In this document: piece after piece, positions 1 through 8,091 of the stretch
How the letters are laid out: each line of letters opens with the position of its first letter
Position numbering within the stretch: the first letter of the stretch is position 1
Source: an uncultured Bacilli bacterium
GTDB taxonomy: Bacteria; Bacillota_I; Bacilli_A; RF39; UBA660
DNA: 64,000 nt
Direction: 5' to 3'
Assembly: GCA_934102335.1 (NCBI GenBank)
Contig: CAKOSP010000005.1
Coordinates: 63 to 64,062 of the forward strand
Made by a program: the position numbers and the translations under genes
Notes under the pieces: model-generated
Database searches by the model: none
What the model saw: only the letters and a program-made list of their open reading frames with translations
Told to the model about the DNA's origin: nothing

Positions 1-145
1 GAGCCGAAATTAATCGGCTTTTAATTTTTAGGTACCATTTAGGTACCAACACACTAATAAATACCAAATTAATAAGGTTGTTGCTAAAACAAAAAGACCA
101 TAAAAGGCCGAAATTAAAAGGAATTAACATATACAAAGGATAAAA

Positions 146-184
146 GGGCGAGCCCCCTGAAGAGAGCGAAAGCTCTCATTTTTG
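146..184 (+). repeat. Hairpin repeat copy 1: cccctgaag motif followed by GAAA-tetraloop stem gagagc/gctctc and a T-run, resembling an intrinsic terminator
   Basis: Direct reading: gggcgagccccctgaagagagcGAAAgctctcatttttg. A related copy sits at 424-482 with compensatory stem changes. Confidence 0.6.
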
Positions 185-423
185 TTTTAAAGCCAGTGTT
201 TATAAGGGCTTGTAATTTTTGAAATAAAATTTTTTGGTCCAATTTTATTTAGCATTTTCCCACATTTTTGCCCATTTTATAAGGAATTAAAAGGAAGTTG
301 TTTGGTACCAAGATAATTTTGTTTAAGACATAAAAATTGTATGTAATTTGTATCTATTATTAAAAAGTTGTAATTACAAATGCCTAGAAATCTTTATGAA
401 TAAAGGAAATTGATTGAAATGTT

Positions 424-482
424 GCTCTCTTCTAACTGAAGAGAGCAGGCTCCCCTGAAGGAGCCGAAAGGCTCCATTTTTA
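424..482 (+). repeat. Hairpin repeat copy 2: a 9-bp perfect hairpin gctctcttc/gaagagagc, then cccctgaag, then a GAAA-tetraloop stem ggagcc/ggctcc and a T-run
   Basis: Direct reading. The string gaagagagc is shared with copy 1. The stem sequences differ between copies but base pairing is preserved. Confidence 0.6.
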
Positions 483-500
483 TTGCAATAAAAAAATTTA

Positions 501-946
501 ATGAGAGAATATAAACAGTTAGGGGCTTATGGTTTAGTTATAAAGAATAATAAAATATTACTTATTAAGAAATTTAGTGGACCCTATGATGGAAAACTAG
601 ATTTACCAGGTGGAACAATAGAGTTTTGTGAAAGACCAGAAGAGGCTTTGAAAAGGGACTCATGGAAGAAGTGGGTATAGAGGTAGTTGATCGTCAATTA
701 TTTGATGCCGACTCTGTTGCTTTTGAATGGCAATTTAAAGAAGCTGTTTTAGTGAAGGTACATCATACTGGTATTTTCTTTAAAGTTTCAAATTACAATA
801 ATGAAATTAAGAGGGAAGTAAAAGTAGATGAAATAAATGATGATTCACTTGGTGCAGAGTTTTATGATATTGATAAATTATCTAAAAAAGAATTATCTGC
901 TATCGCTATAATGGAATTAGAAAAACTAGGGTATATACTTAATTAA
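501..946 (+). pseudogene. NUDIX hydrolase interrupted by a -1 frameshift (a single-base deletion near 658/659)
   Basis: The frame starting at 501 encodes ...PGGTIEFCERPEEALKRD and then hits a stop at 678. The listed ORF 662..946 continues MEEVGIEV.... When joined across the shift the sequence gives G-TIEFC-E-RPEEALK-RE/D-L-MEE-V-GI, which is a perfect Nudix box (GX5EX7REUXEEXGU). Confidence 0.6.
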
Positions 947-1036
947 TACTGTTTTTTACAGGTAAAATAATTGTAAAGAAAAAAATTTAATTCTTTTTAA
1001 ATACTTTTAATAGTGTTATGATATTATTGATGATAT

Positions 1037-1612
1037 ATGGAAAAGGAATATAATTTACAATGTGCTGATTATGCTATAGAAAAAACTATAGAAAGAGCTG
1101 CTGAGGATCCATCATTAAAACAACTGGCATCTGCGACACATTTAACTAATGCTATTCGTGAATACATGTTTAACAATAGTGCTAGGGGTTTTAGTAGTAA
1201 AGATAATGGTCGCGATTATATTAAGCAAATGACTCCAACTGATTTTCAGGAAATAATTATTAAACATGTTTTTAAATCTAAAAATGCTAAAAATAGATTG
1301 GGTTATGCTCAATTATTATCCATTAATAAAGATTTTTCTGAAAGTTTAACAAATGATGAAGTTCAAGAGTTGATTTATAAATCTTTTAGAGAAATGAATG
1401 TTGAAGGCATAGTATATTTATTAAATAAATATCCAAATTTATACAAGTCTTTGATAAGTCAATTTATTGAAGAAAGATATTTTGATGCAAGTTTAGGTGC
1501 TAATAATTTAGATGTTGATATGATTTCACAAGAAGATGCTTACTATTACAAACAAATAGATAACTATTATAATAGTTTAAGAAATAATTTAGGAAGTTCT
1601 GGTCGTCGCTAG
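1037..1612 (+). CDS. Hypothetical protein, 191 aa, with no recognisable motif
   Basis: A complete ORF. It has slightly higher GC than its surroundings and sits immediately upstream of the giant ORF. Confidence 0.55.
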   Translation: MEKEYNLQCADYAIEKTIERAAEDPSLKQLASATHLTNAIREYMFNNSARGFSSKDNGRDYIKQMTPTDFQEIIIKHVFKSKNAKNRLGYAQLLSINKDFSESLTNDEVQELIYKSFREMNVEGIVYLLNKYPNLYKSLISQFIEERYFDASLGANNLDVDMISQEDAYYYKQIDNYYNSLRNNLGSSGRR

Positions 1613-1682
1613 AGCTTTTTTAATTGCTTTTTTAATCAAAATATATTAAACTAATAACTTAATTAATGAGTGGTGATTATGT

Positions 1683-4600
1683 GTGGTTGTTAATTTTCAA
1701 AAATCTGATGACTATGTAAAAATTTTAAAACAATGTTCTAGACATTTTATATCTAAAAAGAAAAAGAAAAAATATTTGGCTAGTTTAGGTATTGGTGAGT
1801 TAATAAATAATTATAGATTATATTATTTTTATTTTGATAATTCTTCATATCTAGCTGAACTTTTGTATAGTTTGTTTCCCCAAGAGGTAATAGATTATTT
1901 TAAAAATACTGTAGTAGAACGTTCTATTCTTTGGGGAAATGGTACTTATTTTTTAAGAGATTGTATGTCTTTGAAAATTAGAAAATTAGCTATCAATAAT
2001 TATTCTTTAGATAATTTAATTGTAATAATGCGTTATTTACAAAATACTAATGAAATTGATTTAATATGTAATCTTCGAAAACGTGAGATAGTTTTTTTAA
2101 TTAAAGAAAACGTTAAAAACAAGTTGTTTTTAGAATGCTTACATAATTATTTACCTCAATTTATTATTGATGAGTTATTAACTTTTTTAAGCGATGAAGA
2201 TTTGTTGATGATATTTAAAGATACAAAAATATATAACGATAATATTGAATATATTTATGATAAATGTCATGAACGAATTATTAATGCATTTAGTAATCAA
2301 ATAAGTCAAGATCCTAGTACAATGGTTGATTTTATAAATTCTAATTGTCCTAGAGAGATAATTTATGATTGTTTAACTAAAGAGGTTTTAAATATAAATG
2401 ATTTGGATAAAATTATTGTGTCACCTTACATTGATAAGAGTACTAAAGAATTAATTTATAAGTTAATTCCAGATAAAATAGATTTAATTGTTTCTAGAAG
2501 ACTAAATAAAAATCCTTATACTTTATGTGATGTTTTTAATAAGACAATGCCAGATGAATTAATACTTAAATTTAGTGCTACTTTTGGTTCTGATGTTATT
2601 TTACAAATGTATACCGACTTTAATCTTAATTCCCAAATAAAGCTTTTGGTATTTGAGCAAAACGACTATATTAAAGAGACTTTATTTACTTTTATTAAAA
2701 ATGATTATAAAGTGGGTAAGCGTATACTTATTTCATTTAGTGACAGTACTGTTGCTGAGAAATTTGCTTTTTTATTACCAGATGACATAGTTAAATTGGT
2801 TTTTAAATACTTTCCCGATTTTGTTAAAGATAAATACTATAAAACAAATAAGGCACTTGTACAGGAAATATTAAAAAATGCTGTTGACAATGATCCTAAT
2901 TATCATATGCATTATTTAGTTAAAAACTATTCTGTAAATATGTATGCTTTTAGTTTATTAAGTGATAATCAGGTTATAGATTTATTAAGTACACAATCAT
3001 TTATAGTGAGTATTTTTATTTGTAATAAAGAAGTAGAAAATCATTGTAAAGAAGTAATTCAAAACAATTTTTATAAAATGAAGGAAAAGAATGTATCAAA
3101 ATTCTTTAAAATTGTCCAAAGTATTTACGAGTTATCTAAGGATTTATTTATATTTACAATTTCGTTATTTGATTATACTATAGATGAGTATCTTTATTTT
3201 TTATCTGATGATGTTCCAGAAAAACTTCAAAAATCATTTTTAGAAATTAAGTATAATTCTTTTAGTAAATTAGTTCAAAAATGTTTGTTATGTTCTGATT
3301 TTGATAAAAAGTCACTTTTAGTAAAAGGGTTGCCAAAAGATATTCTAAAACTAGTTGTTGAAAATATGTCTGATCAAGAAGTAATTGAAATTTTATCTGA
3401 TGATAAATTTGTTAATAGCTTTAATACTGGAGAAGATTTAGCTTCTTTAATATATGCTTATAAATTTGGTAATGAGTCTAACTATGATATTGTTGAAACA
3501 CTTATAAAAAATTATAATGGGTCGAAAATTGAATTTGTAAAAAATTTTGAACTTGTTAATGATTTTTTAAAAAACGTTAATGTTAATCCGTCTAAATTTT
3601 GGCAATATTCATTAAATACCAGTTATAATTATGTTAGTGATATTGTTTTGATATTTAAAACAGATATGGATAATTTTGTTAAAACTTATGATTATTTTAA
3701 TGAACATGTATTTTTAGATGATAATGACGGTTTTATTAGTTTTAGTTTGATGTCAATGATTAAAAATTATAGAAGGTATCCTGAATTATGTAGAAGTATT
3801 GTTCAGAAAAAACAAAACCTTTCAAAACAACAACTTAATGATTTATTATTTTTATTTAATTGTAAAGAATCTTATGAAAATTCATGTAAACCATGTACTA
3901 TTGAAGAGTGTAAAAATGTTAAAAATATGTTAAGAGAAAAACTGGAAAATTTAATTAGTAATTCTGAATCATTAGTTGAAATTAAAGATTTTATTTCTTC
4001 ACTTTTATTTAACTGTGAATTTAGCATTTCTAGTAAATGGTTAAGTACCTATGGATTTTTAAAGGATTTAATTCAACTAGAATTCAATAATCGTTTTAAT
4101 AAAGATATTATTAATGAAATTAAACAAGCGGAATCATTTACTATTTTGTTAGAACAATTGTATAATATTTCAGATATTAATGAAATAAAAGTGATGGCTC
4201 AGCATATTTTAGATAATTTTAATTTACTTGTTAATAAATTTTCTGAGATTAATTATAAAGAAATGATGAGACAATTATATGCAAAAGAGGCTCAAACTAA
4301 TTTGACAAAAATAACTGAGGAAAATAAAGAATTTTATTTAAATAGAGCAAAGACTGAGTTATACGGTGTAAATGTTTATGATTTTAGACAACAACAATAT
4401 GTTTTATATACACATGTTAAAAGTTACAATGAAACTATAGATGATATTGTAAATGGAGTATCTGATGGTAATAAAAATTTTATTTCTTTATCCGCTATTA
4501 CTCATCGTAATCAAAAGTACTATTATAATTTTGATAAATTAAAATTTGGCTATAATGAAATCCCAATCGGTAATTATGTTTGTAGTTCTAGCGAAAATAT

Positions 4601-5621
4601 GGGATCTAACTATCATATGAAAAGAAATAGTTTTGAATTTGATCTAGACCATATTAATCAAAGAGGAATAATGGATACTAGTGATTCGAAAAGTAATTCA
4701 GAAATATTATGTTTTAGAGAAGGATTAAAACCAAACTTTATAATAGTTCCTGCTGATGAAGAAATTAATTATGAAAAAATAAGTATTGCTAAGAAATATA
4801 ATTTAAGTATTATTCTTACACAACCTAAAAATATTACAATAGATAATCCTAAAAATGTAAAAAATAATTATAATTATTTTGATGGACAAAAAACTAAATT
4901 ATTGATATGTCAAAATGAACTTTTAAAATATAAAAAAACTCGTAAGAAAATTGCAATATTTACTGACTCTCATGCCCTTTTTGAACCTACTTTGGCTATT
5001 TTAGAAGATGCTAGAAACTTAAATGTTGATGAAATTTATTCATTGGGTGACAATATTGGCACTGGACCTAATCCTAGTGAAGTTTTAAATTTGTTAAAAA
5101 GATATGATGTTAAATCTTTAAAAGGAAATCATGAAAAATATGTTGTAGATGGGCTTGATGGACTTCGTGAACATCTAGATAAAGTAGGTGGATACCAAGA
5201 AGCATATTTGAATAGTAATTGGACTAAGAATAATTTAACAGAAGATCAATTGAAAGAGATTGCTAATAGTCCTGAATTTTTAGAATTACAATTTGGTGAT
5301 AAGAAGATTTTGTTATGCCATAGTTTAAGAGATTATAACACTAATGAGATAATTTATAATCCAAAAAATTATGATTATGTTTTTCAGGGACATATTCATT
5401 TTAGAAATCAAAGTGATAATACCCTTACTCTTCGTGGGGCTGGTATAGGATCTTTGGATGAAAAAACTGAAGCTTATTATATTATTTTGCATTTAGAGGA
5501 AGATGGTTTGAAAATTGAAGAAAGATACGTTTCATATGATCTTAATAATACATTGAATGACATCAATTGTGTAGATAATAATACTAAGACAAAAATTAGA
5601 TGTTGGATTAAAAAAAGATAA
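1683..5621 (+). CDS. Large (1312 aa) alpha-helical repeat protein with a C-terminal YfcE/MJ0936-type metallophosphoesterase domain
   Basis: GTG start at 1683, 6 nt after a GGTGA RBS. The C-terminal ~225 aa (nt ~4945-5618) carry all five metallophosphoesterase motifs: IFTDSH (DxH), SLGDNIG (GD), KGNHE (GNHE), LLCHS (H) and QGHIH (GHxH). The N-terminal ~1080 aa is made of recurring ~35-40 aa helical units such as DDIVKLVFKYF, KDILKLVVENMSDQEVIEIL and DELLTFLSDEDLLMIF, and contains no catalytic motif. Confidence 0.75.
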   Translation: MVVNFQKSDDYVKILKQCSRHFISKKKKKKYLASLGIGELINNYRLYYFYFDNSSYLAELLYSLFPQEVIDYFKNTVVERSILWGNGTYFLRDCMSLKIRKLAINNYSLDNLIVIMRYLQNTNEIDLICNLRKREIVFLIKENVKNKLFLECLHNYLPQFIIDELLTFLSDEDLLMIFKDTKIYNDNIEYIYDKCHERIINAFSNQISQDPSTMVDFINSNCPREIIYDCLTKEVLNINDLDKIIVSPYIDKSTKELIYKLIPDKIDLIVSRRLNKNPYTLCDVFNKTMPDELILKFSATFGSDVILQMYTDFNLNSQIKLLVFEQNDYIKETLFTFIKNDYKVGKRILISFSDSTVAEKFAFLLPDDIVKLVFKYFPDFVKDKYYKTNKALVQEILKNAVDNDPNYHMHYLVKNYSVNMYAFSLLSDNQVIDLLSTQSFIVSIFICNKEVENHCKEVIQNNFYKMKEKNVSKFFKIVQSIYELSKDLFIFTISLFDYTIDEYLYFLSDDVPEKLQKSFLEIKYNSFSKLVQKCLLCSDFDKKSLLVKGLPKDILKLVVENMSDQEVIEILSDDKFVNSFNTGEDLASLIYAYKFGNESNYDIVETLIKNYNGSKIEFVKNFELVNDFLKNVNVNPSKFWQYSLNTSYNYVSDIVLIFKTDMDNFVKTYDYFNEHVFLDDNDGFISFSLMSMIKNYRRYPELCRSIVQKKQNLSKQQLNDLLFLFNCKESYENSCKPCTIEECKNVKNMLREKLENLISNSESLVEIKDFISSLLFNCEFSISSKWLSTYGFLKDLIQLEFNNRFNKDIINEIKQAESFTILLEQLYNISDINEIKVMAQHILDNFNLLVNKFSEINYKEMMRQLYAKEAQTNLTKITEENKEFYLNRAKTELYGVNVYDFRQQQYVLYTHVKSYNETIDDIVNGVSDGNKNFISLSAITHRNQKYYYNFDKLKFGYNEIPIGNYVCSSSENMGSNYHMKRNSFEFDLDHINQRGIMDTSDSKSNSEILCFREGLKPNFIIVPADEEINYEKISIAKKYNLSIILTQPKNITIDNPKNVKNNYNYFDGQKTKLLICQNELLKYKKTRKKIAIFTDSHALFEPTLAILEDARNLNVDEIYSLGDNIGTGPNPSEVLNLLKRYDVKSLKGNHEKYVVDGLDGLREHLDKVGGYQEAYLNSNWTKNNLTEDQLKEIANSPEFLELQFGDKKILLCHSLRDYNTNEIIYNPKNYDYVFQGHIHFRNQSDNTLTLRGAGIGSLDEKTEAYYIILHLEEDGLKIEERYVSYDLNNTLNDINCVDNNTKTKIRCWIKKR

Positions 5622-5666
5622 TTTACTTGAATTGTTTATTAATGATATAATAATACTTGTGATTAT

Positions 5667-6455
5667 ATGGATACTGGTAATATAATTTTAAATAGACTGA
5701 TAGAATCTACTATAATAATTGTTATAAGTTTTATTTTTTATAAATTAGTAAACTTATTGTTAAAAAAAGCAATAAATAGTGCTAATGAGCATAATTTAAA
5801 AGTTTCTAAAGAAAAAACAACACTTTTTTATCTTTTGTCAAATGGAGTAAAGTATGTGTTTTTGATAGTAATTGCGTTAATAATTTTACAAGTTAATGGT
5901 GTAAATGTTTCGACAATGTTAGCAGGAGTTGGAATTGTTGGAGTAGTTGTAGGCCTTGCTATTCAAGATGCTTTAAAAGATATTATTCGTGGAATTACTT
6001 TATTGGGAGAAGATTATTATAAAGTTGGGGATATAGTTAAAATAGGGGATAATACTGGCGAAGTTGTTTACATGGGCCTAAAAACTACTAGAATTAAAGA
6101 TATGTATACACTAAATATTGTATCTATTGCTAATCGAAACATTGAAAAAGTTGAAATTCTTTCAGGATGTTTAGGGATTGATGTGCCAATGCCATATGAA
6201 GTAACTTTGAAACATGCTGAAAAGGTTATTGAGGAAATAATTCAAGAAATATTAAAAAATAAATATGTTAAAGAGGCAAATTATAGGAATATATCTAAAT
6301 TAGATGATTCGTGTATAAAGTATAAGATTATATTAAAAGTTGATGTCAAAAGAAAATTACAAGTTGATCGTGATGTAAATAGGGTTATTGTAGATATATT
6401 AGCTAAAAATAAAATAGATATTCCTTATAATCAACTTGATATACATACAAAATAA
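5667..6455 (+). CDS. Mechanosensitive ion channel, MscS family
   Basis: TM helices followed by GVGIVGVVVGLAIQDALKDIIRGITLL and a beta-domain VGDIVKIGDNTGEVVYMGLKTTRIKD, which is typical of MscS. Confidence 0.85.
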   Translation: MDTGNIILNRLIESTIIIVISFIFYKLVNLLLKKAINSANEHNLKVSKEKTTLFYLLSNGVKYVFLIVIALIILQVNGVNVSTMLAGVGIVGVVVGLAIQDALKDIIRGITLLGEDYYKVGDIVKIGDNTGEVVYMGLKTTRIKDMYTLNIVSIANRNIEKVEILSGCLGIDVPMPYEVTLKHAEKVIEEIIQEILKNKYVKEANYRNISKLDDSCIKYKIILKVDVKRKLQVDRDVNRVIVDILAKNKIDIPYNQLDIHTK

Positions 6456-6464
6456 AGAGGTATT

Positions 6465-6986
6465 ATGAAAACTATTATATTTAATGATGATAATTTAACG
6501 GATAATGATATAAATAATGTTGTAAAAAGAGCAAAAGTTTTAATTGAAAATAATAAAAAAGAATTTTTAATTGCCAATTCCTATAAAAATTACCATTTAA
6601 TTGGTGGTCATGTTGAAGATAAAGAAACAGATTTTGAATGTATAAAACGTGAAACTTTGGAAGAAACTGGCATTTTATTAACAAATGAAAAGTTTATTCC
6701 TATTATGCAAATTATTTATTATAATAAGAATTATCCTGAAACTGGAATTGATTCTAAATATATTGCTAATTATTATTGGACAATAACTGATAAAAATATT
6801 AGAGCTGATTTAACTAACTTAACTGACGAGGAATTGGATGGTAAATTTAAATGTGTATTTATAAAAAATACGGAAATACTTGATGTTTTAAAAAAATCAA
6901 TGGATAACTGTACTAGAAAAAATGTAGTTAGAGACACTTATTTAGCTGTAGAAGAATACATTAAAACAAAAGAAAAAGACGAGTAA
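6465..6986 (+). CDS. NUDIX hydrolase
   Basis: Nudix box GHVEDKETDFECIKRETLEETGI matches GX5EX7REUXEEXGU. Confidence 0.85.
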   Translation: MKTIIFNDDNLTDNDINNVVKRAKVLIENNKKEFLIANSYKNYHLIGGHVEDKETDFECIKRETLEETGILLTNEKFIPIMQIIYYNKNYPETGIDSKYIANYYWTITDKNIRADLTNLTDEELDGKFKCVFIKNTEILDVLKKSMDNCTRKNVVRDTYLAVEEYIKTKEKDE

Positions 6987-7002
6987 TCGTCTTTTATTTT
7001 TT
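6976..7002. terminator. Bidirectional intrinsic terminator between convergent genes
   Basis: aagacga-gtaa-tcgtctt followed by ttattttt, with an A-run upstream. Confidence 0.7.
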
Positions 7003-8091
7003 AAAGGAATTACTTTGTAAGTTATCAATAGTTGCACTTGTTATACTTCCATCATAATTTTTAAAATTAATTTGTTGGCCATCGTCTAAATAACTTAAAA
7101 CATGTTGGTAGTATAGATTATCTCCATTGTTTGTTTCATTTATATGTTCTTTGAAGTTATTTCCATATTGACTAATTATTTTACTTATAGCTCCAGAGCC
7201 TTTGTTATAAGCCATTATCGTTGCAACTATTTTTTCACTTTCATTTAATGTAGGGTACTTGTTACAAATATTTTTATATTCGTTAGCTAAAATCATACAA
7301 CCAACTTTAATGGCGTATTCAGGATTTACTAACATAGCACCGTTTATTTTAAGAGTTTCTAAAGAATTTGTTTTATAATTGAAAGCATTTATATCATTTT
7401 CATACCATACTGGTTCAATACACATAACACCTTTAGCATAACATTCTGTACTATTATAGGCATTTTCCTGAGTAATTATTGCTAAAACTAAATTACTATC
7501 TAATCCATACATAGGTGCTATTTTATCTACAATATTTTTATAATTTTGTTTAGCAAATCTATTTTTTTCGGAATCTTTTCGAAATTCATAATCTATTGAT
7601 ATAATATTTTCCTGCTGTAAGGGTTTAACGTTTTCACTTAGACAATTTTCAATTTTATTTTCTTCTGGTTCATATATTTGTAAAGTTTCAATTTCAGGTT
7701 TAATCTCATTTTCTTTTTGAGATGTTTTTGCATGTGATGAGATTATGCTAGCTGTTGATAAAATAGTTACTAAACCCATGGCGGCTGTAAATACTTTAAA
7801 ACTATATTTGTTTTTTCTAGTTACTTTTGGAGCTTTATGATATATAAATTTTTCATTTTTTCTTTCTAAATAACTTCTTATTAAATTATTGTCGTTTAGT
7901 ATATAAGCTTTTTCACTTCGACTGTATCCTATGCTTGTAACATTAAATTTATTTATTCTTTTTTCTAACTCTTGTAAATTTATTTCAACAATTTGACCTT
8001 TGATTACTAAAAATGCTTTATATACTTTATTATTTTTTAATTTTATTTTTATATATGGATTACTCATTATATTTTTCCCATTCTGCATCAA
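6994..8091 (-). CDS. Membrane-anchored lytic transglycosylase (SLT-domain) protein
   Basis: N-terminal TM segment. SLT-like core LVLAIITQENAYNS...ECYAKGVMCIEPVWYE. Confidence 0.65.
   Translation of the reverse strand: MMQNGKNIMSNPYIKIKLKNNKVYKAFLVIKGQIVEINLQELEKRINKFNVTSIGYSRSEKAYILNDNNLIRSYLERKNEKFIYHKAPKVTRKNKYSFKVFTAAMGLVTILSTASIISSHAKTSQKENEIKPEIETLQIYEPEENKIENCLSENVKPLQQENIISIDYEFRKDSEKNRFAKQNYKNIVDKIAPMYGLDSNLVLAIITQENAYNSTECYAKGVMCIEPVWYENDINAFNYKTNSLETLKINGAMLVNPEYAIKVGCMILANEYKNICNKYPTLNESEKIVATIMAYNKGSGAISKIISQYGNNFKEHINETNNGDNLYYQHVLSYLDDGQQINFKNYDGSITSATIDNLQSNSFKK

Follow-up and report, generated by a model that had tools for sequence, protein, structure and literature searches.

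A four-part protein of uncultured gut Bacilli joining a predicted ADP-ribosyltransferase-like domain to a SapH-like metallophosphoesterase

The DNA analyzed here, hereafter called the window, is a stretch of 64,000 nucleotides from an uncultured Bacilli bacterium (GTDB lineage Bacillota_I; Bacilli_A; RF39; UBA660; assembly GCA_934102335.1, contig CAKOSP010000005.1, positions 63 to 64,062 of the forward strand) with a G+C content of ~25%. Two adjacent open reading frames (ORFs) near its beginning are the subject of this study, a small one encoding 191 amino acids (aa) and a large one encoding 1312 aa, both of them located where a prediction made from the sequence alone (the original prediction) had put them. 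Our alignments and structure models show that the large protein has four parts, namely diverging helical repeats, a conserved helical domain, a predicted ADP-ribosyltransferase (ART) fold and a SapH-like binuclear metallophosphoesterase (MPE) with all of its ligands intact. The two genes and the parts of the large protein are as follows.

1037..1612, + strand: small ORF, 191 aa (ORF call)
1670..1685, + strand: GGTGAT Shine-Dalgarno sequence (1670-1675) and GTG start codon (1683-1685) of the large gene (sequence inspection)
1683..5621, + strand: large ORF, 1312 aa, GTG start (ORF call)
1683..3422, + strand: N-terminal region, aa 1-580, divergent tandem helical repeats (profile self-alignment)
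3423..4367, + strand: conserved all-helical domain, aa 581-895 (AlphaFold2 model, phmmer)
4368..4868, + strand: predicted ART-like alpha/beta domain, aa 896-1062 (AlphaFold model, conservation)
4869..4946, + strand: basic low-confidence linker, aa 1063-1088 (predicted local distance difference test, pLDDT, <50 at model residues 475-484; isoelectric point, pI, 9.7)
4947..5618, + strand: SapH/Spr1479-like MPE domain, aa 1089-1312 (Pfam, five motifs, helical cap between motifs III and IV)

Both genes are real and are under purifying selection that acts on every domain of the large gene. Compared with an 87%-identical relative (L001), the ratio of nonsynonymous to synonymous substitution rates (dN/dS) is 0.17 for the large gene, with uniform values of 0.13-0.18 across its domains (0.18 in the repeat region), and 0.09 for the 191-aa gene. 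The large protein and its L001 counterpart are 83% identical. The Shine-Dalgarno sequence of the large gene lies 7 nt 5' of its GTG start. The large protein is soluble and acidic, with an overall pI of 5.7 and per-domain values of 5.1-6.5, and no signal peptide is seen in its 1312 aa. The earlier statement that it has no NTPase, nuclease or transmembrane motif also holds, with Pfam detecting neither of these enzymatic domains and the maximum KD19 value reaching just 1.32. Pfam has no match in the small protein, and in the large protein matches Metallophos_2 and Metallophos alone.

These two Pfam models recognize the C-terminal domain at aa 1089-1273 with scores above their gathering thresholds (E 1.1e-11 and E 2.3e-09, respectively), and all five of the MPE motifs that had been predicted are present: D1095-x-H1097, G1122-D1123, G1148-N1149-H1150-E1151, H1213 and G1236-H1237-x-H1239. 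An active-site check found the metal ligands to be invariant or nearly invariant in 62-102 family members, and the domain combines the binuclear-ligand motifs of the calcineurin-like superfamily with its beta-alpha-beta-alpha-beta sandwich fold. However, assignment to a YfcE/MJ0936 type is not borne out, as the NCBIfam YfcE model gives 15.8 bits versus a cut-off of 117 and SapH-like structures score higher. The best PDB sequence match is 3qfm (E 1.3e-10), in an alignment that spans the helical cap between motifs III and IV, and structural scores are 22.2 for 1nnw and 21.7 for 3rqz versus 15.9 for YfcE and 15.0 for MJ0936. Both the capped fold and the detectable sequence homology place the domain among SapH/Spr1479-like enzymes, and alignments and models agree in indicating a SapH-like rather than a YfcE-type phosphoesterase. 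3qfm is SapH/Spr1479 of Streptococcus pneumoniae, an asymmetric Ap4A hydrolase and phosphodiesterase, and 1nnw and 3rqz are uncharacterised relatives. The window protein is like SapH in having all five motifs but unlike SapH, a free-standing protein of 270 aa, in that its MPE forms the C-terminus of a 1312-aa protein where it is joined to the ART-like domain. Free-standing MPE relatives of ~290 aa (32-53% identity) are common in similar genomes. ADPRibase-Mn, of which PDB 2nxf is the prototype, is distant within the MPE superfamily and is a single-domain eukaryotic enzyme, in contrast to the multi-domain window protein. Additionally, a large subgroup of the family (P0175, P0181, P0191 and others, of about 1290 aa) has GN[SA]E in place of GNHE while keeping every metal ligand, and motif IV in these proteins is followed by an extra ~60 aa in which a KQFLYTNS motif is conserved.

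The region just N-terminal to the linker and MPE was overlooked by the original prediction, and modeling suggests that it is probably a second catalytic domain with an ADP-ribosyltransferase-like fold (aa 896-1062). This is the family's most conserved part, being at least as conserved as the MPE. Among 102 sequences that share ~40% identity, H911, E1007 and R1012 are invariant, and Y906, S914, E917, G925, Y947, S968-S969, N972, N976, Q993, G995, S1000, N1005 and Q1047 are nearly so. An AlphaFold2 model of aa 870-1065 (pLDDT 88.7; predicted TM-score, pTM, 0.87) has the split beta-sheet core of the ART fold, and its structural matches are almost exclusively ART folds (CteC, DarT, Tpt1, PARPs and toxins). 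The highest fold-comparison score is with CteC (7.3, with 136 aa aligned), followed by E. coli DarT1 (5.3), M. tuberculosis DarT (5.0), Thermus DarT (4.8), Thermosipho DarTG (4.6) and Tpt1 (4.5 and 3.8). Ranked lower are SopF, OspC3, pierisin, C3, Scabin, Arr, CARDS toxin, several PARPs and tankyrases, together with the pertussis, cholera-like, diphtheria-like and exotoxin A toxins and RhsP2. As judged from this model, the list of matches is overwhelmingly enriched for one fold, that of ARTs.

The predicted secondary structure also indicates where the conserved residues reside. H911 is on the first core strand (907-912, VLYTHV), the sequence F-I-S-L-S with S935-x-S937 is on the next strand (933-940) and is followed by Y946-Y948 with the near-invariant Y947 at its center, and E1007 opens a later, fifth strand (1007-1011, EILCF). 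Known ARTs place H/R, [ST]/Y and E residues on equivalent strands (PMC10810742; PMC8120803). In the model, the positions of H911, of the S-x-S/Tyr segment and of E1007 appear to correspond to these ART catalytic-residue sites. The closest structural match, CteC, is the ubiquitin Thr66 mono-ADP-ribosyltransferase (mART) of Chromobacterium violaceum (PDB 8ux2/8htf). It is an R-S-E enzyme (R65, S97, E220; PMC10810742), whereas the window protein has an invariant His at the Arg position; the aligned identity is only 8-13%, and unlike CteC, a secreted type III effector, the window protein is without a secretion signal. A first-strand His and a catalytic Glu as in DarT, both of them predicted here, are instead features that the domain would have in common with the divergent ARTs DarT (the single-stranded DNA ADP-ribosyltransferase of DarTG) and Tpt1/KptA (an RNA 2'-phosphotransferase). 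The local sequence style of the domain may also resemble that of DarT/Tpt1, with h-Y-x-H-h-x-S ... G across strand 1 and helix 1 and [NQ]-[SA]-E-h-L-h at the Glu strand. Unlike DarT and Tpt1, the window family has no match to Pfam DUF4433 or PTS_2-RNA, and unlike DarTG it has no DarG, macro or NADAR partner in a Pfam census of 201 flanking genes from 66 loci. The R-H-R-R tetrad of Tpt1 is not alignable either, and the scaffold of the window protein is acidic.

PDB profile searches with the protein returned MPE structures and a weak DRTGG-like stretch only. This stretch (aa ~1012-1047, window 4716-4823) is the last beta-alpha-beta unit of the ART-like domain and weakly matches the DRTGG domain of the CBS-pyrophosphatase 3l2b (E 0.02). 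Foldseek with the middle domain also lists DRTGG and HPr-kinase N-terminal matches.

Several results weigh against an ART assignment. The fold scores from the model are moderate and lie in a grey zone, and the top Foldseek match, which is likewise CteC, is weak (E 0.047, prob 0.77, TM about 0.4). The layout of an ART triad (H-Y-[EDQ] or R-[ST]-E) was judged from predicted secondary structure, and the motif following the His is H-x-x-S rather than the usual H-x-[ST]. Searches of 33 diverse members against Pfam, NCBIfam and PADLOC found no match at E <= 10 to any ART family model (DUF4433/DarT, PTS_2-RNA, ADPrib_exo_Tox, PARP and others), a PDB profile search with the middle domain found no ART, and the census of genes flanking the large gene contains no macro, ARH or NADAR reversal enzyme. 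One could propose that only the MPE is catalytic, acting like SapH as an Ap4A, nucleotide or ADP-ribose pyrophosphatase, that the ART-like part is a non-catalytic ligand-binding or structural module or resembles the ART fold by convergence, and that the helical parts regulate or localize the enzyme. The MPE is indeed the sole part recognized at the sequence level, the ART fold scores are in the grey zone, and the C-terminal beta-alpha-beta of the middle domain is weakly DRTGG-like (E 0.02). However, an invariant His, Glu and Arg plus a dozen near-invariant polar residues in about 100 diverse sequences are typical of an active site, and conservation of this domain at least equals that of the MPE. 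We consider such a single-enzyme protein unlikely.

The N-terminal part of the protein was described in the original prediction as ~1080 aa of tandem helical units of 35-40 aa, which is overstated. Divergent repeats do exist at aa ~7-576, but aa 581-895 are helical without being repetitive and aa 896-1062 are alpha/beta. Self-BLAST of the large protein detects no repeats. Profile self-alignment with hhalign gives off-diagonal matches that are confined to aa ~7-576 (Prob 88-94%, E 1e-7 to 3e-6) with register shifts of 67, ~138, ~167-197, 266, 330 and 394 aa, and the first half of this region matches the second half at E 7e-6. Controls for the latter comparison gave E 0.12 (reversed), 0.83 (shuffled) and 0.59 (versus aa 600-895), and reversed or shuffled controls for the self-matches overall gave E 0.006-0.8. 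Fixed-lag autocorrelation has weak peaks at 62-67 aa. Because the profile self-matches beat the reversed, shuffled and aa 600-895 controls, these alignments indicate that aa 1-580 is a divergent repeat array with a register of roughly 66 aa, or possibly 33 aa. The units frequently start with [LMC]P-x-[DE]-[LI]-[IL] and contain LSD-E-x-L-like motifs. Described repeat families (HEAT, ARM, TPR, PPR, LRV, MgtE_N and F-box) match the large protein only below threshold (MgtE_N E 0.007, F-box E 0.92). Among family members this region is variable, with phmmer matches coming only from P0002 and P0132, and its median pI is 5.8.

An AlphaFold2 model of aa 590-1312 that was built on a 63-sequence alignment (pLDDT 89.3, pTM 0.89) is all-helical to about aa 895, with helices throughout the aa 581-895 domain, and continues with an alpha/beta part at aa 898-1046, a disordered basic linker and the phosphoesterase. 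The helical domain does not join the repeats (E 0.59 when compared with them by hhalign). Neither it, the N-terminal region nor the middle domain has a significant match in Pfam, NCBIfam, PADLOC or PHROGs.

An exhaustive search with aa 1-1085 established that the family comprises at least 118 clusters at 50% identity, mostly of proteins 1100-1500 aa in length, nearly all of which align across aa ~600-1065. The ART-like domain is detected in 116 representatives, the MPE in 101 and the helical domain (by phmmer) in 63, with the N-terminus being variable. The original view of an undescribed multi-domain family, in which a helical scaffold comes first and a catalytically intact metallophosphoesterase forms the C-terminus, is supported. 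Five 90%-identity clusters that were inspected contain from 229 to 1,852 sequences each, and carry the public names "metallophosphoesterase", "putative phosphoesterase", "uncharacterized protein MJ0912", "unknown" and "hypothetical protein". No literature on RF39 together with metallophosphoesterases was found. Scanning one genome per species gave 169 matched stretches that encode a relative, from which 80 loci were kept. About 70 of these have the large protein and the rest have free-standing ~290-aa MPE genes, in every case with one copy per locus. Nearly all are from low-GC metagenome-assembled genomes of uncultured gut Bacilli, Bacillota or "Tenericutes/Mollicutes", with a few other bin labels, and the best identity to the window protein among them is 41-42%. 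Carriers include CAG:302, 460, 524, 710, 884 and 1000, genomes that belong to the GTDB order RF39.

The neighborhoods of the large gene vary by sub-clade, with obg (at position -1), yqeG (a YqeG-type HAD phosphatase), yqeH (the YqeH GTPase) and mutL being the commonest neighbors, and the context of the large gene is stand-alone, of a housekeeping type and vertically conserved. These neighbors lend no support to a role in second-messenger turnover. A role in phage defense, also proposed originally, is not borne out either. PADLOC gives no match, the middle domain does not occur in phage and plasmid collections, the neighbors are of a housekeeping type, and the flanking-gene census contains no macro, ARH, NADAR, SIR2 or other defense genes. 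A defense-island or mobile-element context was rejected on the basis of this census and of the phage and plasmid searches. These results also bear on the broader idea that the protein belongs to a conflict system, as an anti-phage effector, a toxin or an NADase whose variable repeats would detect invaders or would be aimed at a protein of the host or of a competitor, in the manner of CteC-type effectors. The N-terminus does diverge fast alongside conserved catalytic domains, the top structural match, CteC, is one of the secreted effector ARTs, and ARTs are common in conflict systems (PMC8120803). However, the PADLOC result, the absence from phage and plasmid collections, and the housekeeping neighborhoods with vertical conservation all argue otherwise, as do the lack of a signal peptide or transmembrane segment in the protein and of an adjacent immunity or antitoxin gene, and the repeat-region dN/dS of 0.18 denotes purifying rather than diversifying selection. 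A conflict function is in our opinion very unlikely.

We favor, with a probability of about 0.42, a reading in which one polypeptide would both carry out NAD+-dependent ADP-ribosyl transfer and, coupled to it in cis, cleave the ADP-ribose pyrophosphate. The repeats and the helical domain would form a scaffold that selects a cellular target, which is likelier to be a protein because the scaffold is acidic. The ART-like domain would then use NAD+ either to attach ADP-ribose to this target or to make an ADP-ribose product, after which the fused phosphoesterase would cleave the ADP-ribose pyrophosphate or a phosphodiester. The outcome of this cleavage would be free AMP plus a remaining phosphoribosyl group, or else the disposal of a by-product. 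The 191-aa protein encoded upstream would be outside this machine. Hydrolysis of ADP-ribose by an enzyme of the MPE superfamily has been described (PMC3407115). The originally proposed link to nucleotide-derived molecules, here NAD+ and ADP-ribose, is plausible.

Such a "transfer, then cleave" logic would be as in SidE and in RNA-repair sets composed of an ART plus a phosphoesterase, with a different phosphoesterase fold here. Like SidE/SdeA of Legionella, the window protein has an ART (in our case a predicted one) and a phosphodiesterase (PDE) on one large multi-domain protein. The PDE of SdeA is not a calcineurin-type metallophosphoesterase and, unlike the window protein, SdeA is a secreted effector that has a deubiquitinase domain and an R-S-ExE mART. 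No homology between SdeA and the window protein was detected. The SdeA mART and PDE domains reside in one protein in which the PDE cleaves ADP-ribose, leaving phosphoribose (PMC8120803). One further possibility is that we are dealing with a native chromosomal enzyme of commensal gut Bacilli, in which a new H-type ART would modify a cellular protein and the MPE would convert the resulting adduct to a phosphoribosyl mark or linkage, such that SidE-like chemistry, reinvented on another phosphodiesterase fold, would serve housekeeping regulation and not virulence. This specific form is unlikely.

The RNA-repair comparison suggests another function, the healing of nucleic-acid ends, in which the role of the ART-like domain would be that of Tpt1/KptA or DarT on RNA or DNA (in 2'-phosphate removal, 5'-phosphate capping or base modification). 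The MPE would resemble the PnkP phosphatase domain, with 2',3'-cyclic phosphates, terminal phosphates or ADP-ribose 1'',2''-cyclic phosphate as its substrates. Sets of an ART and a calcineurin-like phosphoesterase have been described for RNA repair, with KptA/Tpt1 ARTs found alongside calcineurin-like phosphoesterases as gene-neighborhood associations only (PMC9503650). However, both the whole protein and its scaffold have an acidic composition (per-domain pI 5.1-6.5), Pfam PTS_2-RNA and DUF4433 are negative, and no kinase domain, RNA ligase or Hen1 is encoded among the neighbors in the census. We regard end healing as improbable.

The 191-aa ORF, which had been proposed as a partner or modulator of the large protein, is a real gene but is a clade-specific neighbor and not a family-wide partner. 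A hidden Markov model of the small protein, the homologs of which are 55-98% identical, has its only matches in the clade of the window (L001-L003), L006 and L004/L005, with none in the 80 genome loci. Only the window's clade and L006 have the small gene beside the large one, and in L006 the gene that follows it encodes a 1169-aa homolog sharing 43% identity with aa 448-1312 of the large protein. In four of five more distant lineages the small gene is instead located between yfhO and a glycerophosphodiester phosphodiesterase (GDPD) gene, without the large gene. The order yfhO, small protein, GDPD is seen in L004 (7486-11263), L087, L088 and L091, and one lineage (L091-L095) has a 181-aa distant paralog just 5' of the small gene. 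This linkage hints that homologs of the 191-aa protein may have a cell-envelope or teichoic-acid role. Codon 132 of the small gene in L001 (410-982) is an in-frame stop (LLNK*PNLY). Conservation continues in the codons beyond it, with dN/dS values of 0.04 on the 5' side of the stop and 0.28 on the 3' side. The family profile (aa 63-121) weakly matches EF-hand C-lobes of centrin and calmodulin (E 0.006-0.3), for example at LTNDEVQELIYKSF, with no canonical Ca2+-binding loop evident in the 191-aa protein. That the small protein is a diverged copy of the N-terminal repeats was considered and rejected (hhalign Prob 2.8%).

The original model joined the two genes in a sensor-effector module, with a 191-aa partner and a YfcE-type phosphodiesterase that would turn over second messengers and would be tied to NUDIX enzymes encoded nearby. 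Both the window's clade and the 43%-identity relative L006 retain the pair, and the intergenic gap is just 70 nt with only a weak terminator-like hairpin. However, the small protein is absent from all 80 other family loci, four of the five more distant small-protein lineages are linked to yfhO/GDPD, the small gene has an in-frame stop in L001, the MPE is not of the YfcE type, and NUDIX linkage is clade-specific with the upstream NUDIX gene decaying. A conserved two-gene module is consequently rejected, and the model as a whole is hardly credible.

The other features surrounding the locus are listed below.

1-20, 162-177 and 460-475, + strand: three terminator-like hairpins, each a short GC stem and then a T-run
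501..946, + strand: split NUDIX gene, upstream, with a frameshift
5667..6455, + strand: MscS-type channel gene, downstream
6465..6986, + strand: intact NUDIX gene, downstream

The two NUDIX genes flank the locus as originally noted, one frameshifted and one intact. NUDIX genes account for just two of the 201 genes in the flanking census and for 2/102 downstream neighbors outside the window's clade, and the order of the large gene, MscS and NUDIX is conserved in this clade only. The MscS-type channel and intact NUDIX genes (5667..6986) are probably co-transcribed with the large gene because the first terminator-like site is a hairpin at 6974-6995. This hairpin has a perfect 9-bp stem with T-runs on both strands, separates the convergent NUDIX (6465..6986) and SLT-transglycosylase (6994..8091, minus strand) genes, and looks like a bidirectional terminator. 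The frameshift in the upstream NUDIX gene yields ORFs of 59 and 94 aa, and in the 99%-identical relative L002 (2329-2674) the same gene lacks ~90 bp, leaving a 114-aa ORF. It appears to be decaying independently in close relatives.

The hairpins that had been noted upstream of the locus are present as three terminator-like structures, all in the 500-nt gene-free stretch that opens the window, and look like stacked intrinsic terminators. Two of them have in common a 33-nt repeat, CCCCTGAAG..GAAAG..CATTTTT (154-186 and 452-484). Positions 1-7200 contain eight terminator-like sites versus 0.9 expected. A promoter scan was uninformative (61 sites versus 60.5 expected).

As modeled, the combination of domains in the large protein represents both a new ART-like family and a new ART-MPE architecture. 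If the middle domain is an active ART, then it would constitute a new ART family that is invisible to sequence libraries, and the architecture would be one that is kept in many uncultured low-GC Bacilli of the human and animal gut whose biology is nearly unknown. The family is abundant and yet publicly labelled only as metallophosphoesterase, unknown or hypothetical. H911/E1007 and D1095/H1097 provide concrete mutational handles on the two predicted activities. If the favored reading is true, the "transfer, then trim" logic of SidE would extend beyond pathogens.

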